Shown here piece by piece: positions 235-34,714 of a stretch of 34,714 nucleotides of DNA. How positions within the stretch are numbered: the stretch's first letter is position 1; every line of letters begins with the position of its first letter. The notes below the pieces were generated by a model that searched no databases, was not told the DNA's origin, and was given only the letters and a program-made list of their open reading frames with translations. The translations under genes and the position numbers were made by a program. Source of the DNA: a virus (Duplodnaviria; Heunggongvirae; Uroviricota; Caudoviricetes); the IMG/VR virus record IMGVR_UViG_2740892487_000001. The stretch is one strand, 5' to 3'.

Positions 235-337
235 TATCATACAATGTGTTGACTCAATTTTATGGCACGGAACAACTTTTAGAATGAATGTGATAGAATC
301 ACGCGAAATTTCGCATTATATGTAGAGAGAAAACTTA

Positions 338-2340
338 ATGCTTAAGTATAGGAAAGAGCTTGATGGATTGCGTTGTTTGGCAGTGATGGCTGTCATCATT
401 TATCACTCTGGCATTTCTTTGTTTGGAGTAAAGATATTCAAAGGCGGATTCTTTGGAGTTGATGTCTTCCTGGTTCTTTCAGGATATTTAATTACAGATA
501 TCATTATAAATAAACTTGATAGCCGCTCTTTCTCACTAACTGACTTCTATTGGAGACGCATAAAGAGAATTGTTCCTGCTCTTATTGCTATGCTTGTAGT
601 TACATCGATAGTGGCTTATAAAATTCTTCTACCAAATGACTTAGTAAAATTCTCTGAATCTCTCATTTCTGCTATTTATTTTGGTTCTAATTATTATTTT
701 CTTGGTGAAGATAGCTATGTATCAAATGCAAGTATATTTAAACCACTCCTTCATACATGGAGTCTTGCTGTTGAATGGCAATTCTACGTATTTTATCCAT
801 TCTTATTGATTTTTATAAATAAATTTATTAAGAAATACAGAGTATTACTTCTTATATTGATTTCTGTTTCATCTATTGTGTATGCAAATATTATAGTTAG
901 CAGTTACCCTGACTTAGCATTCTATACGCTACTACCAAGGGCATGGGAATTAATTCTTGGTGGAATTGTGTCTTTTTTTTGTAAAAGAAAGAAGAAGCAA
1001 TATACATAAAGACCAATCATCTTTAACTTCGTTTCTGCCAGTAATTGGAATGTTGATGATTGTTTATTCAATGTTGTTTTTTGGAAATAACATCAAACAC
1101 CCTTCATTTATCACCCTAATACCTGTAGCTGGTTCATGTTTGATAATCGCATTTGCAAATGGTGCCGATTTAATATCTAAAATATTATCCTTGCGTCCGA
1201 TTGTCTTTATTGGCTTGATATCATATTCTCTATATTTATGGCATCAACCTGTTTTTGTTTTTTACAGGATATTATTTAGTGAAAATATCACTCCTTATTA
1301 CTGTGTAGTATTAGCATCAATTTCAATTGTTATTTCGTCTTTTTTCATATTTTTTTATTGAAAAACCATATAGAGCAAAACATGTTAAAAGTAAGAATAC
1401 AATAGTATTAGCAACATCTCTGTCAGCATTGCTTGCTTTCTCTATTTATGCAAAGGCCGATGGGGGTTTTCAGTGGCGTCTTGCAGGCATTCTGAAAGAA
1501 ACCTATGAAATGTACAAAGAACCAGAGTTCAGGAAATTGGCAGATTATTCAAATATTGGTAAAAGTTTAAGAGGTGAACCTGATAGTTATTTATGTGGTT
1601 TACGTTCTCTTGATAACCCGTGTAGCTTTGGCGGTGATGACATCATCGTATTAGGAGATAGCTATGCTGGACAATATGCACCAACAATTTTAGATTACTC
1701 AAAAGAAAATAACAAAGGGATGTTATCTCTCACGTATGAGCAATGTCCATTTGTGAGTGATATGTGGTTTGGCAATGTTCCTGAATGTGTGGTTGTCAAT
1801 GAGCAAAGATGGAAAGCCATTGATTCTCTTAAGGGGAAGAAAACTATTTTTATAGCTGCTAATTATGATCAATTCCCGCTTGCTAAGGCTCCTGTGTCAT
1901 CTCCTTTAGAGATGGCGAAGCAAAATTTTAGTGGCGGAGATTTTTTAGGTGGCGAGCAGGCATATATCTCTCTATCGAATAATGTTAAGAAACTCGTGTC
2001 CAAGGGGCATGATGTATATATTGTATACCCAACCCCTAATCCTTCTGAAGATGTTGCCAACATAGTATTCTCAAAACTAAGATCTATCAATTATAAGTTT
2101 GAGACAACATACACAAGCAGCAGAAATGGGCTTAACTTAGCAAAACAACAATCCGATATATTAGATAAATATATTCCTGACATGAAAGGATTGCATAAGA
2201 TAAAACCTATAAAAACTTTATGTGATGACAATGGTTGTAGAATAATTGACCATAACGGCGGATTATATAATGTTGGTTTTCACTTATCTAAATCTGGTGT
2301 TAAAGAAATACTTAATGATAACGGCTTTGTAATTAATTAG
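338..2340 (+). CDS. Membrane O-acetyltransferase (acyltransferase-3 domain, OafA/Oac-like) with C-terminal SGNH-type domain; frame broken twice at T-runs (973-980 and ~1339-1354)
   Basis: The three track ORFs 338-1009, 957-1361 and 1327-2340 join if one T is removed at each run. N-terminus MLKYRKELDGLRCLAVMAVIIYHS and multiple hydrophobic segments are typical of acyltransferase-3; the C-terminal part contains GDSYAG. Visibly AT-rich. Confidence 0.7.
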
Positions 2341-2370
2341 TTTATTTTGTCCACCAACATTATCAATACT

Positions 2371-2402
2371 AAAAAAACAGCGGCAATTTCGCCGCTGTTT
2401 TT
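2371..2402. terminator. Bidirectional intrinsic terminator between the convergent acetyltransferase and tailspike genes
   Basis: A7 - CAGCGGC - aatttc - GCCGCTG - T5: GC stem flanked by A-run and T-run, placed between two convergent stop codons. Confidence 0.7.
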
Positions 2403-4348
2403 ATATAAAATAAGTAACAGAACCAATTATCTCAGCATTATTACCTAGAACATTTAGTTGTACATTCATATTACCAGCGACAGATGTAGCTCCTGTAAAT
2501 GTTATGTAATTACTTTCAGCATCAACCCTAGGCAATAGCGCAGCCACAGCCGTAGTTAAGTTATTGTAATACCCAATAGATCCAACAGAAGTAGCCCCTG
2601 GTCGTGACAAAAAAAGGTAATCCACCTATCCTATAACCATCTCCACTTCCAATAATCGTTATCCCTATGTGAAAACTTGCGGTCACTACATCACCAGTTC
2701 TTGTATAACTTCCAACTTGTTTATAGTAGGAGGCATTTCCGCCTACAGTCGGAATCCAAACTCCAGTTTCTATATCACCACACGACCAGTCTTCTGCTGT
2801 TGTTAGTTTTCCAGTAACAATAAATTTACTTCCACCACCAGAATTATAAGGAACAAAAATTGGTTTTATTCTTGCATAAGTGTTACCGATCTGCTCATTA
2901 AGATCATTTCTATCAATAAGAACTTGACCATTTTCGAAGTTTGAAATCTGGCAGTCTGTTACACTCCAGTCTCTTAACTTCACATCAGCATCCATGACAC
3001 CAATAAGCTTACCAGCATTACCAATTTTTTCTTTATGCATATTTACATACACATTTCTTACCGTAACAGACTGAGGGAACAAATAATTATCAGGATTAGT
3101 TTTATCACTTAAAACAGATATTACCCAAGGTCTGTGTTGAGTACTTACTTCACAATAAAATCCATCAATAAGCGTTCCAGATGCCGCTGGTCCAAGTAGT
3201 ATTCCACCTGTAGAGTGATGCGCACTACCTCCAATTACTCGCCCCTTAACGCAGTTAATATAGGCAAAATATCCTAAATCTTGATTGTTATATGCTGCCA
3301 TGGCGCAATCTCTTATTGTAACTCTAGAGTTCCCACCATCATATGCACTGCCATCCGTTTTTTTACCAGGTAAAGAAATGAAATTACCTATTGCAATATC
3401 ACTAAAAAATGTTTTTTTATAGCATCCTTCTATAAGGATATCCCAGTTTTCAAACTGAGCATATATATCATAAGAATCCTTATTACCATAATCAATAAAA
3501 TCACAATATTGTATTTTTGGTGTAAAAACAAAGCTCTTTACCATTATTCCAAACTTTGCATTTTGACCACCAGTGAATCTAATTCCATAAATTACATAAT
3601 CACCTTGATAAAAATTATCTGCTGTTGGTTGATCTTCGTCAGTTGGATCTCCACACTTAACTGCAGCGTCAGTTCCAGTATAGTTTATTGTTGCTCCTTT
3701 AAAAGAGTATAAAGTAACAGGTCTAATTAAATTCAATGACTCGCTAATAAGATAATTTCCATCTGGAAAGTACACGGATACTGGTGGAGAATATTTAGGT
3801 CTTGTGTTAACGTAATCTTTAAGTTTGAGCACCGCAGCATCATCATTCGTGCCATCACCTTTAAACCCAAAGTCTTTCGCGCTCACAAAATCTGCATTTT
3901 TATCGTGCTGTGCTCTCTCGATTGCCATAGAGAGGGGTTGTTTTACACGAACAACTGAATCATCAACTAATAATGGCCCATTTTCAGATAGCAATCTTTC
4001 CTGAAATTGATCAGGGTCATATTTCAGCACATTAGGGAAATAGAACTGCTGCGTGCCATACGCATCATATACAGCCATAGAATGGCCTTGCACAGTTACG
4101 AATTTGGCAATCTGCCCGTTATATACCGGATATCCAGCAGCGTTAATGATGATTGGCTGTGCAACAGAAACGTGAGAGCCGTCTTCGTTTTCCACATAAA
4201 CCTGAATCTGGTTTTCAGGATTTACAGGGTCAGTGTCAATTTTACCGATATAAATTTTGCCATTGGCTACGGCTTTAAAAGAACGAGCCATAGTGAAGAG
4301 TTGCGAAGGCATGCTTACCACAACATTGGCATTTATTGAATCTGTCAT
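2401..4348 (-). CDS. Tailspike protein: P22-like head-binding N-terminal domain plus a different beta-helix-like receptor-binding/depolymerase domain; frame broken at A7 (2608-2614)
   Basis: N-terminus [60 protein letters not shown] closely matches the P22 gp9 head-binding domain as I recall it; the rest diverges. ORFs 2561-4393 and 2401-2625 join if the run is A6. Confidence 0.85.
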
Positions 4349-4434
4349 TTTAATTTCTCTATATGTTAAGCAAGCAATATTCATTGCTAGCATGTTTTTG
4401 TATAATGAGTGAACTTTATTTAAAGGTGGTTAAC

Positions 4435-4945
4435 ATGAACTGGAACGAAGTATTCGTATTAAAAGACGATGGACTCCTGTACTGGAGTGACCAATATCTT
4501 TCAAGACCCAAAATGTTCAATATCTCTAAAGAAAAGCCTGCAGGACATATATTCAAGGACAAGAACAGGAAAACATCTTATATAATTATCAGGTATCAAG
4601 ATAAAATATACGCCGCCCATAGGATAATATGGGAAATGTTTTATGGTGAAATCCCTTCAGGAATGCAAATTGACCATAAAGATGGTAATGGGTTAAATAA
4701 TTCAATAGACAACCTGCGTCTAGTTAGTCTCGGTGAAAACCTAAAAAAACAAATCTAAATACACAAACAATACATCCGGGTGCGCAGGTGTTTCATGGCA
4801 TAAGACCCATAAAAAGTGGGTGGCATATATTAGCGACGCAGGGAAGCGCATTAATCTCGGATACTTTAAGTGTCTCGATGATGCAATTGCTGTAAGGCGT
4901 GAGGCTGAAAAGACCTATGGTTATCATGAGAATCATGGTAGGTGA
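4435..4945 (+). CDS. HNH endonuclease with C-terminal AP2 DNA-binding domain (homing-endonuclease-like); frame broken at A7 (4743-4749)
   Basis: HNH motif QIDHKDGNGLNNSIDNLRLVS; after the stop at 4758 the +1 frame continues NTSGCAGVSWHKTHKKWVAYISDAGKRINLGYFKCLDDAIAVRREAEKTYGYHENHGR (AP2-like). Shine-Dalgarno-like AAAGGTGG before the ATG at 4435. Confidence 0.7.
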
Positions 4946-5012
4946 TATCTGACATTTCATTGCTCCAGATACAAGGAATCGCCGCAGCGTAGCTACGGTG
5001 AATTTTGGGCAT

Positions 5013-5035
5013 AAAAAAACCCAGCCGAAGCTGGG
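5013..5035 (-). terminator. Intrinsic terminator downstream of ant
   Basis: Minus strand reads CCCAGC-TTCG-GCTGGG followed by T7, just after the ant stop codon. Confidence 0.7.
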
Positions 5036-5054
5036 TCGTTGCGTTGGTTATCTG

Positions 5055-5957
5055 TCAGTAGTTATGTACTGAAGGAGGTAATTCTTTATTCTTAAGTCTC
5101 ATCCATGCGGAAAGATTCGTTGGTCCGTCTGGCTCATTAATATCAACATCTCGTGTGTGGTTTATTAAAACGTCTCTCGCCATTCCGATAACATACGAGA
5201 ATTCATGACCGTAGTCGTAGCATCTGCCGGAATAGTTCGATTGAATTTGTTTTAATGCCGGATACAGTTCGCGGAATAATGCCTGTGAGCGGTTGGCATA
5301 ATCCCATAGCCATACAAGGCTGTTTGCTTCTTTTGCAGAAAGCTCGTTGGTTTTCTTCTCTTGTTTGCCGATGAACTCGCCTTCAAGCACTACCCTGTGG
5401 ATGTACTCTACTGCTTGCGGTATCTGAGATGAATCAAGCTCTTCAATACTTTCCACGTTGAAACGCTGATGAATCATTGCATAAGCTTCTGGGTACATTA
5501 GATGCTTTTTGCTGACTAGCATATTTACAGCATCACGAAGCGGAGTCCTGTCATCAACAGATGTTTTCTTACGTGCATTTTCTGCCTTTCCCTTCGTCCA
5601 GTAGTCATGCAGCACAGTAAAGCATTCTTCCTGGTACTGAATCAGTTTATCGCGGATGTCAGCACGAACTTTCTCAGGGTTGATGCTGAACAGCCATCCA
5701 TTTAACTTCTTCAAAGGAAGGCAGAGTAGCCTACGAAGCTTACCATCAGCGGCAACCATGTTCATATGAACACAGTTGAATTTGCTAATCTGCTTCATGA
5801 GTTTTGTTTGCTGCGTTGACCAGCTCATTCCAAGGTTTTTAACGATTGGCTTCATCGCAACATATGCAACTCCGGCAGTCATGGCGGTGATAATCTGCTG
5901 ACCATTGAAAGGTACGTAAGAGGTGTTCACTGCTTCTAAAATTGCTATACTATTCAT
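5055..5957 (-). CDS. ant: Antirepressor Ant (P22 immI type; N-terminal part conserved, C-terminal half divergent)
   Basis: From the ATG at 5957: [39 protein letters not shown]..., recalled as the P22 Ant N-terminus; sits directly downstream of arc as in P22. Confidence 0.85.
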
Positions 5958-6025
5958 GTTGGTTTTTCTCCACGAATTTACTGACAACAGAAGCCCTGAC
6001 TGTTCCCGCAGTTGGGGCTTCAACT

Positions 6026-6187
6026 TTACGCGCCAATACGCCCTTCCTTCTTAAAGCTGTCCATTACTCTCTGATAAATCTCAGAGTTAACAGACCGACC
6101 ATTCTCTTCCGCCACCTTGCGTACCAAATCCAATACTTCTTTAGGCCACCGCAAATTGAACTGCGGCATTTTGCTCATTCCTTTCAT
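6026..6187 (-). CDS. arc: Arc repressor (ribbon-helix-helix)
   Basis: [53 protein letters not shown] is near-identical to P22 Arc as recalled. Confidence 0.95.
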
Positions 6188-6201
6188 GTTCACCTCACAA
6201 T

Positions 6202-6222
6202 ATAGGTCCACGGTGGACCTAT
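6202..6222. promoter_or_regulatory. Mnt operator (O_mnt), perfect palindrome
   Basis: ATAGGTCCACGGTGGACCTAT, recalled as the P22 mnt operator; lies between divergent arc and mnt. Confidence 0.85.
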
Positions 6223-6229
6223 TGAGAAT

Positions 6230-6250
6230 ATAGTAGAGTGCTTCTATCAT
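6230..6250. promoter_or_regulatory. Arc operator (O_arc) / Pant region
   Basis: ATAGTAGAGTGCTTCTATCAT, recalled as the P22 arc operator; immediately upstream of arc. Confidence 0.85.
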
Positions 6251-6277
6251 GTCAATACACTAACTTGGAGTGATGGC

Positions 6278-6532
6278 ATGGCTAGAGATGATCCGCACTT
6301 TAACTTCCGCATGCCTTTGGAAGTAAGAGAAAAATTAAAATACAGAGCAGAGTCAAATGGTAGATCAATGAACTCAGAATTGTTGCAAATCGTCCAAGAT
6401 GCTCTATCGAGACCATCTCCTGTAAAAGGTTATCGCAATGAAGCTGAACGATTAGCCGAGATGCAGGCTGAACAGTTCAAGTCTGTGGTATTTGAGACAC
6501 TTAAAAACATGTATGGCAAGGATGCAAAATGA
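6278..6532 (+). CDS. mnt: Mnt repressor (ribbon-helix-helix)
   Basis: MARDDPHFNFRMPLEVREKLKYRAESNGRSMNSELLQIVQDALSRPSPVKGYRNEAERLAEMQAEQFKSVVFETLKNMYGKDAK matches P22 Mnt as recalled. Confidence 0.95.
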   Translation: MARDDPHFNFRMPLEVREKLKYRAESNGRSMNSELLQIVQDALSRPSPVKGYRNEAERLAEMQAEQFKSVVFETLKNMYGKDAK

Positions 6533-6590
6533 TCGATTACAACCCAGCAAAAAAAAGAAATCATCGCAGCTAAAAAAGTGCCTAGAGCAG

Positions 6591-7112
6591 ATGAAATCAT
6601 CTACAAACCATGATGATTTTGAAATGCACTGGCGAGAATGTCTTGGGCATATAGAAAAGTCTTTCAGTAAGTTGCTCTGTGCAACAAAGCCGGTTAGTGG
6701 AAAATTTAGCAGCCACTTCAACCAAAAGTTCATGCTTAGAAAAACAGACAAAACACTTGCTTACCTTCACCAAGCAAGAAATGCTGATCATCATTCCACT
6801 ATGGAAATCTCAAAACTTGAACCTCCTTATACTACTCTTGGGGCATTTCCGGGAGCAAGAAGCCATTATATTAAAGAGTTAATCATTGATTCAACAGGGA
6901 AAATAGCAAAATACGAAGGCGACCCTATGATAGTTGAGTTTCATCCAGCAACAACTATGCCTATAACCGTAAGAAACCAAGGCAAAGATTATCCACCTCC
7001 AACAGAACATCTTGGCGAAAAGCTTGTTGATATACATCCATCTGTTCTTGCCTATCTCGGTATACAATTTTATGAAAAATGGATAGATGAGTCGTGTGCA
7101 ACGTTTAGATAG
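6591..7112 (+). CDS. Hypothetical protein, AT-rich cargo gene downstream of mnt (start uncertain; an ATG at 6529 overlaps the mnt stop but runs in another frame across an A8 tract)
   Basis: Long ORF 6492-7112 with a visibly AT-rich composition unlike the flanking phage backbone; no family recognised from sequence. Confidence 0.5.
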   Translation: MKSSTNHDDFEMHWRECLGHIEKSFSKLLCATKPVSGKFSSHFNQKFMLRKTDKTLAYLHQARNADHHSTMEISKLEPPYTTLGAFPGARSHYIKELIIDSTGKIAKYEGDPMIVEFHPATTMPITVRNQGKDYPPPTEHLGEKLVDIHPSVLAYLGIQFYEKWIDESCATFR

Positions 7113-7279
7113 TTATTTTTGATAATTTCAAGTATTTCCTCTTGACTTTGATTTACCCAAACGTGATCACACTCATGAAACCAGATTATGCTTCCTGTTT
7201 CGCCTTGTGCAATATAGGTGATCATGTTTTCATTAACAATTATTACTGAGTTATCATGTGCGCAATTTAGTTTTATCAA
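7070..7279 (-). CDS. Hypothetical small protein (69 aa), AT-rich, 3' end overlaps the preceding gene
   Basis: ORF only; no recognisable motif. Confidence 0.25.
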
Positions 7280-7341
7280 TTCGCATATCCTATCGTGACA
7301 AAGTAACTAGAAAAACTAAAGAGGTTGGTGTGTCTGATTCT

Positions 7342-7825
7342 ATGAGTTACGCTGTGCTAGTTGCCGCAACTCTATTTATGGGGATAGGGTTGCAGATTGC
7401 GTGGTTCTTTTTTTTCTAGTTTTATTAAACGCAAAAGAATTGAATCAAGGATATCTGAGATTTCTATTGCTATAGGGAAAAATGCTGAAAATCCAGAGAA
7501 TGAGGCCTGCGCACTGAATTACCTTAAAGAAAAGTTTTCCCCTGAAAAATTTGAAAATAGAATTACTGATGCTCTTGGATTGGTAATATCAGTAATTCAT
7601 ATGCCACTAAGTTTGCTGATAACAGTGTGGTACTTCGCCATGATCGCCGGAAGAATATTTGGTTTCATGAATATAGAGCCTGTAGTTCTTTGGGTTCCAA
7701 TGATACTGCAACTGTTGTTAAGCGTTGCTATCTTTATTTTTTCTGTTTTTATAAAAATTGTCTTTGGAAGATATCCCGGAGAAGCTAAGGGATTTAATAA
7801 AGAATTCATAAAAACTATAAAATAA
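7342..7825 (+). CDS. Putative inner-membrane superinfection-exclusion protein (SieA-like by position); frame broken at T8 (7408-7415)
   Basis: ATG at 7342 gives [24 protein letters not shown] and rejoins ORF 7397-7825 if the run is T7. Several hydrophobic segments; lies between the gp16 and mnt homologs where P22 carries sieA. Confidence 0.45.
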
Positions 7826-7847
7826 ATGCCGTCCTTGGCTTACAGTG

Positions 7848-9694
7848 CTACTGCCGGGTCGCTTCGTTAGCTAAGAGCGGGCGCACGGCAGTAGCAGCCT
7901 GATTTAGCGCTCTTTCATAAGCTGGCGTTCCAGCTTTAGTGTTTGCCAGACGTAAGAGCGCATTCCTTGCTGCTTTGGACTCATACAAACGCATCATTGC
8001 ACCGAAACCAGCCTCAAGCCCCATTGATACGCCAAGAGTCGCAGTTGCGCCAATCGTCCTTATCCTGTTGGCTTGAGATTGCCCCGTCTGAGTTACTACA
8101 TTTGCGGTGTCTGATCTTGCTGTTTGCTGTAGAACTTCATGAAGAGCATCAAGTTCTTTCATGTGCTTTCCAGAAAAAATAGTGTTGTAAATTTCACCGC
8201 CTGACTGAGATTTCAGCTTATTAACTTCCGTGATGAACTTGGCTGGAGAGTCACCGGCCTTTTCCGCTATTTTGCTGACGTAAGCTGCACGCATAGCATC
8301 TTTCCCTTTATCATCCAATGCGCTCCAGATTCGTTTCACGTCAGATGGTTTTCTGCTTAATACAACGGTATTTATAAGTTCAGGACTGGCTTCACTGTTT
8401 GCCTTGTTGAGCTTGTTAGCAATGTTTTTATTAAGCACCTTATTATAAACGTTTGCATAATCGGAATTTGCTTTAAGGTATTTTGCTGCGTCTGACGCAC
8501 CGAGGTTTTTTGCAACTGCGTTACGAAGGTCTTTTGACATTGCATTCTCTACCATATTGGTAGCTGCTTTTGCCTGGTTGGGGAAGACCATAGCATCTCC
8601 CTGAACATTAGATCTAAATGCTGTTCTGTGCTGACGCAATAGATCAAACGTAACATCCAAATCAGTTGCAGGGTTTGCTAATTCTTCACGTAGGTTACGC
8701 AAGGATGTAAGCAGGCTTTGATTGGCTGAAGTCCCAAGCCGTTCCTGTCTTGCGATCGCTGTATTCAGAGCATTCATGGTATTTGTGGTATCAACTGCGG
8801 CATTACCCATTTTATTGGTGACGTCATTGATAACAGCGCCAGCAGCATCCTTCCGCCCCCTTAACGTGGTGGTCAGAGATTTCACCACATCATCAGGGTT
8901 GTACTCACCAAAACGGTCAAAATAATTGCTTACCAGCTTACTACGCGTTGCATATTGCTCCGCTCGCTTTGAGCCTGTCCCGAGCAAAGCCCCCTCGGCA
9001 TCCTGAGTAAGGCCGCGAGTGAAAGCATTTTTCGGCGGGATAACATCAGATGTCATTGGTGTCACACCCATTGATTCTGAGGTGGCAATTTTTTTTTTTT
9101 CGCTACTTCTGGCGCGATATCGCCTTTTATAGCCGTTATTCCACGCCCTATTCCCTTTGCTGCTGCGGAAAGAACACCCTGAGCGGCAAGGTTAACTCCG
9201 GCATTTATGGCTGCATTTTGCGCGAAATCACCTTTCTGGTTTGCGGCTTCTGCCAGTGATCCAATAGCCATGCTTCCTGCCGTTCCAACTCCTGGAACTA
9301 AATACCCGCCAATTGTTTCTCCAGCTTGCGCATAAGGGTCTGTCGGTCGATCGACAGGGCGATAAACATCATCCAAAACCTTGGGACCACCAAGACCCTG
9401 GCTGATTGCATTAATCAGACTTGCGCCACCCTGCAATACGTCAAATGGTATGTTTACCAGACCACGACCAGCCTGCTCTGCAATTTGCCCTGCACTTTGA
9501 CCACCTGTGAGCCAATCGCCAGCTTGTTGCATCAATGATGGTTCTTCCTGTGTTGGTGCATTATTGGCCTGATTAACTGTTTGTTGCTGAACAGCCTGAC
9601 CAGCAAAATACTCATCAATGGCGGTGCCAATATCTTCGGTGCTCGTACCATCAGGAAAGGTAAATGTCTTACCGTTTGCAGTTACTTTCATCAT
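7848..9694 (-). CDS. Ejection (injection) protein gp16-like; frame broken at the T12 run 9089-9100 (A-run encoding KKKK on the coding strand)
   Basis: N-terminus [32 protein letters not shown] resembles P22 gp16; ORFs 9062-9694 and 7848-9071 join with a length change in the homopolymer. Confidence 0.8.
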
Positions 9695-11157
9695 TCCACC
9701 GTAAATTGAATGCCTGATTTTGAGGTATATGATCCGGATTGACTCTGCTGCGGTTGGGTATTTGTCGGTTGTTGGCTATTGCTCTGTTGTTGACTATTTG
9801 CAGCACTTGAAACCACCAAAGCATCATAAACGCGACCAGACTGACCACGTAACGAGTTATATTGGCCCTGCATTTTTCGCATTTTTGTTTCAGTAGCAGC
9901 CTTGGAATCACCGGGCTGAGGCAGGTACATTTTGGAATACTCCTGCATCTCTGGCAGAGTAATTGCTGCACCTGTTTCTGGGCGCAAAATTGCATACAAG
10001 GCGTCTCTCGCATTTACCATATATTGCTGCTCCGCTGGTGATAGGCTTAAATTTGCAATAGTCCCATCACCAAGAGAGCGATTTATTAATGCAACTCGCT
10101 TAGGGTCAATGCTTTTACTAAGCTGATTCATTGAGTCCATTGAATCTTTTAATCGCAAAGCAAATCCTGCCGCCTTCTTGGAACCCTCATTAGCCTTATC
10201 TATGATGCTTTGCGCTTGTGGCAAGCTAATTGGTTTAATGCCATCACCAGATATAGGTTGGTTTAGTTTTCCGGCTTCCTCGCTGCCATCGGTGTAATAC
10301 TTAGTTACCGAGCCATCAGGATTGGTTTCAACCTTAAGTAATTTCTTAGCATTGGGATTAATTCCCGCCGCTGCCGCAAATGCTGCTGCACCATCTGGAT
10401 CCGCCTTTAACATTTGCGCGTACTGATTGTAATTCTGCATTGCGGCTGTTGGTGCATATGCTGACGTTAACGCATTTGCTCGGCTAATATCCTGCCCTCT
10501 CGCCTGAAGTGCTTCGCTGGCCTGATTGCTGCGGATTGTCTCTGCCAGCCTGCCTCGGTCAATTTCACGACCAGCCATCTTATCCTGAACATTGAAGTAA
10601 TCAATCGGACCAAGCGCGGCCATTCCAAGGTGATCAACAAACTCACCAAATCCTGAAGGATTCTGCTGATACATCTGAGCAACGTTATTAGGGTCAACAC
10701 CGACGCGCGCCAGCTCATTGGCGTTGTTTTGCAGCCATGATTGCATTGCTTCTGGAGACGATGACGCAAGGCGTGCGCCAGCCGCTAAGGTGCCGATAGA
10801 ATTACGCTGATCTTCATCAATGAATCCCATGCCTTTACGAACGGATTCAATCTGGTCTGGATATTGAGTAGCCAACTGACGCAAAGCACCGCGATCACCA
10901 GACGCATAAGCATTAGCGTACGCCTGCTGAAATTCTTTCTGCCGCTGAGCCTGCTTTTCCTGCTGAAACACCCCTGCAATACCTGAAAGACCTTGCAAAG
11001 CAGTCAGCCCAACATTGTTAGCGCCTGAACGCTCAATATCATTGTTCTGCCTGATAAGCTGAAGCGTATTGCCGATGTCATTTACGCTCGGAGCGTTTGA
11101 GTTGACGCCGCCGATACCAGCTAACAATCCACCATTTGATCCTTGCCAAGTAGCCAT
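9691..11157 (-). CDS. Ejection protein gp20-like
   Basis: 488-aa ORF in the P22 gene-20 position between the gp7 and gp16 homologs; assigned by gene order and size. Confidence 0.75.
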
Positions 11158-11166
11158 GATTACCCC

Positions 11167-11858
11167 TTAAAACAACGAGCCAAGCAATCCGATACCAGCA
11201 CCAATGCCAGCGCCCCAAGGTGTTGATGTTCCCAAAAGGCTGGCAAGACCTGCACCTGCAATCGCACCAGACGTGCCACCGCTAATTGCAGTCTGAAGAC
11301 TTGATGGTTTATTGGCATTAGCAGCGGCAAGAGCTGCGCTTTGCTGTGCAATGCTGCTCATGTTGTTGGCGTACGTCTGCCCGGCGTTTGCCTGACCTTG
11401 CAGAGCACCAAGCCAATGTTTGCCAGATTGTTGTAGTTGCTCATCTGGTTCGACAACCACGACTGACCGAGAGTCGGGGCAATCGTGGCCAGTTGATTGC
11501 TTGTGGCTGTCGAGCCAAGTCCACCCGTCGCCTCCGCAGCAGCAAGACTCTGGTAACGCGCCTGACCTGCAAGGTCTTTATACTGCTGAGAGTTGTAATA
11601 CTGATTAAGTGCCTGCCCCTGTCCTTCTAAACTGGAAAGATTCTGAAGCTGGTTAACATACTGCTCCGCAAGCGGCGTGAACGGAGCAAGGTTTTTCATG
11701 ATCGTCTGCCACTGTTGATTTTGCAGGTCTGCGGCATACTTCTGAGCTTCTGCGGCATACTTTGCACTTTTATCAGAACTGCCACCTTTCCCGCCTTTTT
11801 CAGGGCAATAAGGTTCCTCGCCGCGCAGTTTTCTGCCCAGCTTAAATGCATATAACAT
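11167..11858 (-). CDS. Ejection protein gp7-like; frameshift near 11400-11420
   Basis: MLYAFKLGRKLRGEEPYCPEKGGKGGSSDKSAKYAAEAQKYAADLQNQQ... matches P22 gp7 as recalled; the C-terminal part (GALQGQANAGQTYANN...GIGLLGSLF) continues in a second frame, consistent with a missing G in a short G-run. Confidence 0.8.
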
Positions 11859-11860
11859 GG

Positions 11861-12319
11861 CTATCTCCCGTGATTCAGGAAGTCGATTAGTTCTTCGCGT
11901 GTGGCGCTGTAAAACGTCACGTCATCAACGCCTTTGAAGTATTTCTTGATGGTTCCTACACGCTTAAGGCCAATCATTGCGCAGTACATCTGACCGTGGC
12001 GGAATTTGCGTGCAGCGAACGATGTGACGCACTGAACAGTGGTGTTAGTCAGAATGTATCGCCAGAACGCCAGCCCGATTTCCTTGCTGAAGCCACGAAT
12101 CTCTGGCAGGTACATGGCGTGGCAATCGAATGTAAGCGGCTGAATCTCCTGATAGTAAACAATGCCGCCGAACTGCCCGTGCACGTTCACCTCAAAGTAA
12201 CGGCAATCAGGTTTGTAGTCGTATCCATCACCGTTGTTGCTCCCGGCAATAATGTCAGGGTGATTTCCGACTGCTTCGATCAGGTCGATGTTTCGCGTTG
12301 GTTTGAACTGAATCATCAC
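11861..12319 (-). CDS. gp14-like head/ejection assembly protein
   Basis: 152-aa ORF in the P22 gene-14 position between the tail needle and gp7. Confidence 0.6.
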
Positions 12320-32276: not shown

Positions 32277-32995
<719 letters not shown>

Positions 32996-33026
32996 TTGTT
33001 TTATTTTTCACGTAATAGGATGATTT

Positions 33027-33368
33027 ATGACACAATTTCAACTTGCATTAATCGCTAGAGAAGTTGATGGAGAAGTCATCCATCTTCGCACCAAAGACGG
33101 ATACATCAATGCCACCGCGATGTGCAAGTCTGCGGGGAAGCTACTTGCTGACTATACACGACTAAAAACAACACAAGATTTTTTTGATGAATTATCACGC
33201 GATATGGGGATTCCCATATCGGAGTTAATTCAATCATTTAAAGGCGGAAGAGCAGAGAATCAAGGGACTTGGGTTCATCCAGACATCGCAATTAATTTAG
33301 CTCAGTGGCTATCTCCAAAATTTGCAGTGCAAGTATCGAGATGGGTGCGTGAGTGGATGTCAGGTTAA
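33027..33368 (+). CDS. KilA-N domain protein, in the position occupied by rexA in lambda
   Basis: 113-aa ORF directly downstream of cI on the same strand; sequence is consistent with a KilA-N/APSES-type DNA-binding domain (judged by eye, low certainty). Confidence 0.6.
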   Translation: MTQFQLALIAREVDGEVIHLRTKDGYINATAMCKSAGKLLADYTRLKTTQDFFDELSRDMGIPISELIQSFKGGRAENQGTWVHPDIAINLAQWLSPKFAVQVSRWVREWMSG

Positions 33369-33404
33369 AGAGCGCCTGCCGAACTCCCTATCCACCTTAA
33401 GCGG

Positions 33405-33787
33405 TATATGACAAACCGAGGCAGAGTTCCTCATACGCACTTTTCTATGCTTAATGAACTGACGTTTAACTTGGTTGCGCCACTTGAACAGGCCGGATAT
33501 ACGCTGCCAGAAAAAAATGGTCCCTGATATTTCAGAGGGTAGGGTTTTCTCGCAATGGCTCCGTGACAACCGGGGGGTTGAGCCGAAGACATTCCCAACA
33601 TATAACCATGAGTACCCAGATGGCCGGACATTCCCGGTACGTCTATACCCAAACGAATATTGCAGATTTCAAACAATACTTCAACGAAGTGTGGCTGCCT
33701 CAGTACGCTCCTAAATATTTTGCTGAACGAGACCAAAGGGCATTGACGTTGATTGAGAAAATCATGCTACCTGACCTTGATTCCTAA
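33405..33787 (+). CDS. Hypothetical protein downstream of the KilA-N gene, same frame as it; frame broken at A7 (33511-33517) and again near 33640
   Basis: ATG at 33405; coding-like sequence continues through three frames (…PDISEGRVFSQWLRDNRGVEPKTFPTYNHEYPDGRTFPVRLYPNEY / ADFKQYFNEVWLPQYAPKYFAERDQRALTLIEKIMLPDLDS) and ends 9 nt before a terminator. Confidence 0.45.
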
Positions 33788-33795
33788 ATGTTATT

Positions 33796-33822
33796 CCCGG
33801 CCACAGAGCCGGGTTTTCTTTG
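33796..33822 (+). terminator. Intrinsic terminator ending the cI operon (t_imm-like)
   Basis: CCCGGC-cacaga-GCCGGG followed by TTTTCTTTG. Confidence 0.75.
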
Positions 33823-33973
33823 CCTCACGATCCCCCTCACCCAAGAACACATAACCAATTGTATCTATTTGAAAATAAATAGATACAACTCACTAAACAT
33901 AGCAGTTCAGATCTCTCACCTACCAAACAATGCACCCCTGCAAAAAATAAATTCATATAAAAAAACATACAGA

Positions 33974-34037
33974 TAACCATCTGCGGTGATGAATTATCTC
34001 TAGCGGTGTTGACATAAATACCACTGGCGGTGATACT
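33974..34037 (+). promoter_or_regulatory. OL3-OL2-OL1 operators and pL promoter
   Basis: TAACCATCTGCGGTGAT, TATCTCTAGCGGTGTTG, TACCACTGGCGGTGATA; -35 TTGACA (34009-34014) and -10 GATACT (34032-34037), matching lambda pL as recalled with a few substitutions. Confidence 0.85.
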
Positions 34038-34105
34038 AAACACATCAGCAGGACGCACTACTCACCAGGGCGGTGAATATACAACGATTCAAATATGAAT
34101 CTACG

Positions 34106-34120
34106 GCGCTGACAAAGCGC
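34106..34120 (+). promoter_or_regulatory. nutL boxB hairpin (P22 type)
   Basis: GCGCTGACAAAGCGC between pL and the N-like gene. Confidence 0.65.
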
Positions 34121-34248
34121 AATAACCAAAGTGAACTTTGGGGTGAATGCAGAAGCTAACCTTCTCGGCGGAGGCGCTTTGCAATGATTACGCTACCGGA
34201 GTTAGTCGCCCGGCTGTATTCACCGCCAAAGTTCACCAGGAGGTCTAT

Positions 34249-34632
34249 ATGACACGCAGAACTCAGTTCAAAGGCAATTCACGTTCTCGTCGTCGTGAGC
34301 GTTTAAAGGCAAAGGCATTAGCTAACGGCGTACTGGCCCGCGAAGAAGCAATAAGTTCAGAAGTATTACACCGCCCTACTCTAAGCAGAGCGCAGATTCA
34401 GGCTAAAGGTACTCACGAAACGCCTGAGCGCATAGAAGACGCTAAGCCAATTAAGTTCATGGCACAGGACGTGATCTGGCAACAGAAAGAATACAGACGC
34501 AATCTGGAGAGAGCGGCCATTGTGTACGCGAATGAGTTTGGACATAAGCAACCAGAAACTGGTGTATGTCTTCCAAATGTAGCTCTTTACGCAGCAGGAT
34601 ACCGGAAATCAAAACAACTGACGGCGAGATGA
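34249..34632 (+). CDS. N-family antiterminator (P22 gene 24-like C-terminus, not lambda N)
   Basis: AGGAGG 6 nt before the ATG; arginine-rich motif GNSRSRRRERLKAKALA; C-terminus LPNVALYAAGYRKSKQLTAR resembles P22 gp24 as recalled. Confidence 0.7.
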   Translation: MTRRTQFKGNSRSRRRERLKAKALANGVLAREEAISSEVLHRPTLSRAQIQAKGTHETPERIEDAKPIKFMAQDVIWQQKEYRRNLERAAIVYANEFGHKQPETGVCLPNVALYAAGYRKSKQLTAR

Positions 34633-34714
34633 CTTGTGTTGGTCGCCAGAAGCAACGCGGAAAATCAATTCCAGCTTATTACGATTGAGGTGAGCCATGC
34701 TCAAGAAAGTCAAA

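Follow-up and report, generated by a model that had tools for sequence, protein, structure and literature searches.

An optional cassette with an HNH-AP2 gene of homing-endonuclease type at the tailspike start of a P22-like Escherichia coli prophage

I-HmuI, from Bacillus phage SPO1, is an intron-encoded endonuclease that nicks one strand and whose C-terminal DNA-binding region is helical rather than of the AP2 type. The association of an HNH domain with an AP2 domain is a recognised architecture of phage homing endonucleases (PMC2248197, PMC10448857), and the HNH-AP2 homing endonuclease family is referred to Magnani et al. 2004, as cited in PMC10448857. Genes of this kind are carried by the Xanthomonas phages Xp10, OP1 and Xop411 (PMC2248197), and the 'IPA-HNH' genes of ICP1, where gp115 and gp116 form a pair split by a frameshift, belong to the same class (PMC10448857); split or decaying HNH-AP2 genes are documented both in the Xanthomonas phages and in ICP1 (PMC2248197, PMC10448857). 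According to Barth et al., HNH genes of this architecture can be domesticated. The free-standing homing genes of the T4-like phages are intergenic and optional, and they spread by cutting the allele that lacks the gene, with co-conversion of the flanks (PMC10448857).

The DNA analysed here (the window, 34,714 nucleotides) belongs to a P22-like (Lederbergvirus) E. coli prophage, and a gene of HNH-AP2 architecture lies in it between the tailspike gene and ant. Its family is known and its product is already listed in RefSeq as an HNH endonuclease, the gene itself being uncharacterised; a search of the literature on an HNH gene at the P22-like tailspike/ant junction, including the papers on phage Kapi1, returned nothing on this gene. 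We propose, with a probability of about 0.7, that the cassette carrying this I-HmuI-like HNH ('HNN')-AP2 gene encodes a free-standing putative homing endonuclease and that the A7 run which interrupts its reading frame is an error.

The nuclease gene and its neighbourhood

The tailspike gene occupies positions 2401 to 4348 on the minus strand and carries a Head_binding domain (about 4000-4348, minus strand). Its product has 648 aa in the references, the window copy being broken by one additional A at 2615, and its true ATG was placed at 4348-4346 by alignment with relatives. On the other side of the nuclease gene is an intrinsic terminator (5018-5037, minus strand), which corresponds to the ant terminator tANT of the HK620 annotation and constitutes the right-hand conserved flank ('boundary sequence'). 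It is followed by ant (5957-5055, minus strand) and by the antisense RNA sar (5958-6025, plus strand; Rfam RF00262, 91 bits), which overlaps the start of ant. The match to sar confirms the presence of a complete P22-type immI region (mnt, arc, sar, ant). The annotated flanks are in agreement with the earlier note on this DNA, which had located the gene at a module boundary between the tailspike and the ant/immI region. The nuclease gene is divergent from the tailspike gene and stands between the start of the latter and the ant terminator; it is therefore antisense to the late operon. The Rfam search of positions 3900 to 6700 gave the sar RNA as its only match, with no intron or other structured RNA in or around the cassette. 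An endonuclease encoded in a group I or group II intron was also considered and rejected, since Rfam recognises no intron and the gene is intergenic, on the strand opposite to its neighbours.

On the far side, the tailspike gene adjoins an O-antigen-modifying acyltransferase gene (338-2340, plus strand; Acyl_transf_3 and SGNH domains, 666 aa in the references). In the window this gene appears as three ORFs due to two run-length errors, and no stretch of the window is more AT-rich (33% GC).

The nuclease ORF starts at the ATG at position 4435 on the plus strand, six bases past a Shine-Dalgarno sequence (AAGGTGG, 4423-4429, plus strand). Its 5' part in frame 0 (4435-4758) encodes a beta-rich N-terminal region and a complete HNH_3 motif, with D80-H81 at 4672-4677 and N102 at 4738-4740; as given, this frame ends at a premature TAA (4756-4758) made by an extra A, and the product has 107 aa. 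Its 3' part (4748-4945, plus strand) is in the +1 frame, which is open from the end of the A7 run to the TGA at 4943-4945, and encodes a linker and a DNA-binding domain of AP2 fold (three strands and a helix). In relatives the intact form is an ORF of 510 nt encoding 169 aa. All the catalytic residues of the D-H...N...N site are located upstream of the A run; the D and the H are invariant, and the Asn positions invariant or nearly so, in an alignment of 54 sequences.

In the Pfam search, the fragment encoded by the window matched HNH_3 (PF13392) over aa 59-102 with 74.3 bits (E=5.7e-21) and the intact allele with 72.9 bits, both to be read against a gathering cut-off of 24.8 bits. The AP2 family (PF00847) remained below its gathering cut-off of 33.3 bits, the fragment scoring 26.1 bits and the intact protein 23.3 bits; precomputed PF00847 matches exist for many homologues. 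With a profile of 54 homologues, the AP2 domain of WRI1 was matched at E=1.3e-5 and that of TEM1 at 1.7e-3. The AlphaFold model of an intact member, 98% identical to the window protein, has a pLDDT of 92.5, and its AP2 part consists of three strands (129-132, 137-144, 147-154) and a helix (157-171); this C-terminal part superposes on the AP2 domain of AtERF1 (1gcc) with an rmsd of 1.2 A over 48 residues and a TM score of 0.64. The best solved relative by sequence is I-HmuI (PDB 1u3e), with E=6e-6 from the single sequence and 3e-12 with the 54-sequence profile, and I-HmuI is also the best fold match, 102 residues being aligned with the AlphaFold model. The intact protein matches PHROG 99 ('HNH endonuclease') at 4.9e-59 and, in PADLOC, 'homing endonuclease' models only, without any other defence-system model; NCBIfam has no model for it. 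Taken together, these matches support a predicted protein made of an HNH domain, recognised at the curated threshold, and of an AP2 domain, recognised at the level of profile and fold only.

The claim of a free-standing HNH-AP2 gene of homing-endonuclease type, made in the earlier note, is thus upheld by the HNH_3 score, the AP2 profile and fold matches and the proximity to I-HmuI. The same note had taken AT-richness as a mark of the gene. This was not confirmed: the nuclease gene has 38.4% GC in a window of 46.2%, and the tailspike (37.4%) and acyltransferase (33.4%) genes are equally AT-rich. The dN/dS ratio of the nuclease gene is between 0.03 and 0.23, indicating that the protein is maintained by purifying selection.

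The frame break at the A run

The homopolymer at 4743-4749 (plus strand) is A7 in the window and A6 in close relatives, the extra A putting the AP2 part in the +1 frame. All 12 E. coli carrier alleles fetched from complete genomes have A6 and an intact ORF. A6 is also present in the chromosome of strain 81, in the ENA metagenome scaffold L026 and in the assembly L028, three sequences at least 99.85% identical to the window, which agree with one another and in which every gene is intact. Over the 11,731 bp compared between the window (235-11964) and L026, there was one substitution, a synonymous C/T at 4777, and nine indel events. The positions of these indels, private to the window, are 980, 1345, 2615, 4749, 6556, 6577, 7415, 9085-9096 and 11413, and each of the nine falls in a single-base repeat: a GG doublet in one case, an A or T run of at least 5 bases in the eight others. 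Seven of them add one base to an A or T run of 5-7, one turns T7 into T12 and one reduces GG to G. Seven genes are thereby broken, those of the acyltransferase (at two sites), the tailspike, the HNH protein, a 193-aa ORF (at two sites), sieA, gp16 and gp7. Comparison with another P22-like prophage revealed more run-length breaks, in the large terminase (20311) and helicase (29673, 29867) genes, and runs of at least 7 bases number 24 in the window and 5 in a comparable prophage. Expansion was observed in none of 97 runs of 4 bases, then in 2/27, 2/7 and 3/8 of the runs of 5, 6 and 7 bases, respectively. Private indels in single-base repeats were also noted at 32602-34665.

Nine private homopolymer indels for one substitution form a signature of sequencing or assembly error and not of natural decay. 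It is therefore very probable that the frame break at A7 is such an artefact, in which case the real gene is probably intact, with A6. The single A7 run between the HNH and AP2 domains, reported in the earlier note, does exist in the sequence as given; its status as a biological frame break is not supported, an assembly error being the most likely cause. As given, the gene thus matters little: its product is already annotated, its family is known, and the break that gave it an unusual look is most likely an error. More broadly, the assembly of the window is prone to errors, its homopolymer runs being systematically too long, and every apparent pseudogene in it should be distrusted. The T12 run at 9085-9096, in the region where gp16 and gp20 meet, corresponds to T7 in both L026 and L028, to T6 in strain 81 and to TTTTCTT in SJC33; its five added bases exceed the other errors in size and may reflect a genuinely unstable run.

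A real A7 would make the gene a frameshift-inactivated pseudogene, a stage of decay in the homing cycle with an HNH-only product of 107 aa devoid of AP2. Several records are in agreement with natural variation at this run. The Logan contig L025 carries an independent A7 allele with the identical 107-aa product; its tailspike flank and right context are different, it is more than 100 substitutions away from the nearest fetched relatives, and it has no other coding indel. A5 alleles are also on record (a 152-aa product, 8 cluster members), as are other truncated forms of 104 aa and 81 aa. The A7 of L025 and the A5 alleles designate the run as a recurrent natural site of indels, so that the A7 of the window could be real, and split or decaying genes of the family, such as gp115-gp116 of ICP1 and those of the Xanthomonas phages, would provide a precedent. 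Against this, the A7 of the window is private among near-identical relatives with A6, and it is accompanied by eight more private homopolymer indels that break essential genes, for one substitution in 11.7 kb, a ratio which fits sequencing error. Among exact products of the truncated gene, the 107-aa version was matched only in unrelated Logan contigs, and the versions of 117 aa and 131 aa had no match in the records. We thus consider a genuine pseudogene improbable and retain a sequencing or assembly error as the cause of the frame break.

The coexistence of A5, A6 and A7 alleles could also suggest that recoding is programmed at the run, or that the run is a contingency site, so that transcriptional slippage, a +1 ribosomal frameshift or phase variation would yield either the HNH-only or the full-length protein. 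The downstream frame is +1 and could be restored by the loss of one A during transcription. This possibility appears highly improbable: the A6 run is in frame in every fetched complete-genome carrier allele, the Enterobacter and metagenome orthologues have A5 at the run, in frame, and hence no conserved slippery site, and the error pattern extending over the window accounts for A7. A -1 ribosomal frameshift on A AAA AAA was ruled out in particular, since such a shift fails to restore the frame, that of AP2 being +1 and not -1.

An optional cassette between two tailspike starts

The nuclease gene is the only gene of an optional cassette (4357-4945) of about 590-607 bp. Comparison of the tailspike-ant junction with that of relatives devoid of the gene defined the insertion site: empty alleles align to positions 4000-4356 of the window and then again from 4947 or 4941, the same 17 nt being used twice, and the breakpoints are located after 4356 on the left and at 4941-4947 on the right. 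The left copy of the repeat (4340-4356, minus strand) contains the functional tailspike start (ATG 4348-4346) and 8 nt upstream of it. The right copy (4941-4968, minus strand), overlapped by the stop codon of the nuclease gene, is the remnant of a second tailspike start, with GGAGC, a spacer and ATG TCA GAT ATC ACC (MSDIT; ATG 4955-4953). Along the late strand, the first five codons of one start type are thus followed by the nuclease gene in antisense and by another Shine-Dalgarno/ATG, of a different type. As the cassette lies between two copies of the tailspike Shine-Dalgarno/ATG, the tailspike retains a working start. The cassette itself ends on the left, on the minus strand, with AGAG (the reverse complement of 4357-4360), which is the Shine-Dalgarno-like sequence of the tailspike.

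Particularly informative is the empty allele L030: it lacks the cassette, its right flank shares 99.75% identity with window 4941-10591, and its real tailspike start (MSDIT...) is identical to the right-hand remnant of the window. In other carriers the remnant is of P22 type (MTDIT), like the start of SJC33 and other empty alleles. The two repeat copies lead into different start types (MTDSIN versus MSDIT/MTDIT), which rules out a simple target-site duplication. A 17-nt flanking repeat is not left by classical homing through double-strand-break repair, and the original insertion may therefore have had another origin. From the remnant start a short antisense ORF (4866-4955, minus strand; MSDITYHDSHDNHRSFQPHALQQLHHRDT) extends into the 3' end of the nuclease gene. 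All alleles conserve the first codons of this ORF, since these are the old tailspike start. At the same boundary in E. coli ES5 (L017, ~3100-3190), an unrelated insert of ~110 bp interrupts the conserved sequence that separates the tailspike start from the ant terminator; its edges carry a duplicated 'ACGGTGAATTTT', and it is a further sign of the boundary being an insertion hot spot.

The 5' non-coding region of the cassette (4357-4434, plus strand) comprises, besides the Shine-Dalgarno sequence, a palindrome (AGCAAT-ATTC-ATTGCT, 4373-4388), a T5 run (4395-4399) and a -10-like TATAAT (4401-4406), all on the plus strand. The TATAAT, identified by eye, is backed only by its conservation in orthologues: with the palindrome, it recurs (as TGATATAAT) at the same place in those of Salmonella, Enterobacter and the metagenome. 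No full -35/-10 promoter was found by a consensus sigma-70 scan of 4200-5200. The sequence of the palindrome differs among orthologues, with a compensatory change in Enterobacter (GTAAT...ATTAC), and the T run that separates the palindrome from the -10 has a length of T5 to T7 depending on the E. coli allele. The region of the palindrome and the T run may be an operator or a promoter of variable spacing.

The cassette was found in 15 of 5,426 complete E. coli genomes. The uninterrupted junction of the tailspike start with the conserved sequence preceding the ant terminator was found in at least 500 complete E. coli genomes, a number to be read as a lower bound only, since the 76-nt junction queries cross-match and do not separate the start types. 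Phage HK620 also represents an empty allele. The tailspikes adjacent to the cassette are of at least 10 different bodies (574, 621, 647, 648, 710, 720, 764, 800, 825 and 982 aa), and the right neighbours vary among carriers between ant, mnt alone and gp16. The 982-aa tailspike is a CUS-3-type K1 endosialidase, found beside the cassette in L027 (GCA_036614935.1, 7013-10557), and phage CUS-3 itself has an empty junction. Orthologues 66-83% identical occur at the same position, with the same remnant repeat, in Salmonella, in Enterobacter ludwigii and in a metagenome, and the occupied alleles of four genera all have a tailspike start of MTDSI type (or MSDSI type).

The age of the cassette was assessed by comparing the occupied E. 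coli alleles of the window, of 10 complete genomes and of Logan contig L025, 12 in all. Their mean pairwise identity is 98.9% in the cassette (4357-4945) versus 92.2% in the adjoining head-binding DNA (4004-4339), the cassette being about 7 times less diverged than the neighbouring tailspike DNA. The head-binding DNA of empty alleles is 92.6% identical, like the 92.2% of the carriers. The difference between 98.9% and 92.2% indicates that the ancestor of the cassette is far more recent than that of the adjoining essential gene, and points to a recent horizontal spread. The number of variable sites among carriers decreases toward the cassette, from 20 to 3 in 50 bp, and a comparable though weaker decrease is seen in empty alleles; this weak gradient is therefore not counted here as evidence of co-conversion.

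These data strengthen the proposal of the earlier note that the gene is a selfish insertion at a module boundary, the presence/absence pattern, the exact borders and the lower age than the flanks all being in its favour. Empty-site alleles, L030 among them, are abundant, and the same gene at the same site in all relatives, which would have contradicted an insertion, is not what the genomes contain: 15 carriers stand against hundreds of empty alleles.

The maintenance of the protein could alternatively mean that the gene has been domesticated as an accessory gene, either a nuclease expressed by the prophage to exclude superinfecting P22-like phages or a regulator of AP2 type with the palindrome next to the tailspike start as its target, its patchiness then resulting from mosaic recombination. 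A -10-like element and a Shine-Dalgarno sequence belong to the gene itself, which is oriented away from the late operon, in a region that houses lysogenic-conversion and exclusion genes of P22-like phages (sieA, immI, O-antigen modifiers). Purifying selection on it is strong, it has kept a single site across genera, its promoter palindrome is conserved in position with the compensatory change of the Enterobacter allele, and Barth et al. allow for domesticated HNH genes of the same architecture. However, no defence-system model other than 'homing endonuclease' was matched, and a 600-bp cassette much younger than its flanks, with about 2-3% occupancy, fits a selfish element better; exclusion and homing can, moreover, coexist. 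Domestication is consequently regarded as quite unlikely, and a selfish, homing-type element remains the preferred reading.

Possible homing and comparison with known systems

Cleavage, target site and homing are here predicted from comparative data. In the case where the intact protein would act as a homing endonuclease, its AP2 and N-terminal domains would bind the DNA of relatives without the cassette, at their uninterrupted tailspike-start/boundary junction or close to it. The HNN site would then nick or cut this junction, or nearby tailspike/ant DNA, in a co-resident or superinfecting P22-like phage, and recombinational repair from the carrier would copy in the cassette together with the adjacent tailspike head-binding DNA.

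A stronger version of this scheme would see the cassette as an active homing element that targets the tailspike start, rewrites the N-terminus of the tailspike across P22-like phages and promotes host-range exchange. The insertion would have taken place behind the fifth codon of a tailspike of P22 or L030 type (MTDIT or MSDIT), the cassette bringing its own Shine-Dalgarno sequence, ATG and first codons (MTDSI...); the empty starts of HK620 type (MTDSINA) would be scars of cassette loss through the 17-nt repeats, and co-conversion of the head-binding DNA would promote exchange of the host-range module. This version seems rather unlikely to us. The earlier note had suggested that the insertion may drive exchange of the adjacent tailspike, and carriers do have at least 10 different tailspike bodies. 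However, carriers and empty alleles lose homology at the same joint between the head-binding and receptor-binding parts (about 4000-4008), and since this joint is used with or without the nuclease, the nuclease is not needed to explain tailspike swapping, which neither supports nor contradicts a role of the gene in it. The anatomy of the insertion offers a concrete and testable case of a homing-type nuclease on a host-range gene of temperate P22-like phages, for which near-isogenic empty alleles, usable as cleavage substrates, are already identified.

With I-HmuI, the window protein shares the N-terminal beta region and the beta-beta-alpha-metal site with the D-H...N...N ('HNN') residues; it differs by the free-standing location of its gene and by its C-terminal AP2 fold. 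The resemblance to the HNH-AP2 family is more complete, as it includes the N-terminal HNH/HNN and C-terminal AP2 domains, the free-standing and patchy occurrence beside essential or structural genes, and the existence of split copies. The window cassette is distinguished from these relatives by its residence in a temperate P22-like prophage, within the translation-start region of the tailspike and between two copies of it. Its HNH domain is a canonical Pfam HNH_3, whereas that of the IPA-HNH proteins of ICP1 is divergent. The seg and mob genes of T4-like phages are, like the window cassette, intergenic and optional genes between conserved genes; their nucleases are of other families (GIY-YIG, or HNH with a zinc finger), and homing has been established experimentally for them, whereas that of the window gene is predicted from sequence comparison.

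Among database records, the E. coli protein WP_060618121.1 (RefSeq 'HNH endonuclease signature motif containing protein') is exactly the product of the A6 form of the window gene, from whose gene the window copy differs by one extra A (A7) and by the synonymous C/T at 4777. WP_001104356.1, which has the same RefSeq name, is 98-99% identical, and both records occupy the same site in other strains; ADA72691.1 of Shigella flexneri 2002017 is also among the closest records. Kapi1_066, the HNH endonuclease of Escherichia phage vB_EcoP_Kapi1 (L002, 2485-3030), has the same HNH_3 and AP2 architecture, belongs to PHROG 99 and is inserted at the same site, with an identical right junction including the MTDIT remnant of the tailspike start. 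This protein is only 42% identical to that of the window over 92 aa, and its gene is located 22 bp from a different tailspike start (MPEQLY...), without the palindrome/TATAAT spacer. The orthologues found at one site across genera, together with the right junction shared by the Kapi1 gene, point to a long-fixed site, which at least two divergent nuclease lineages use.
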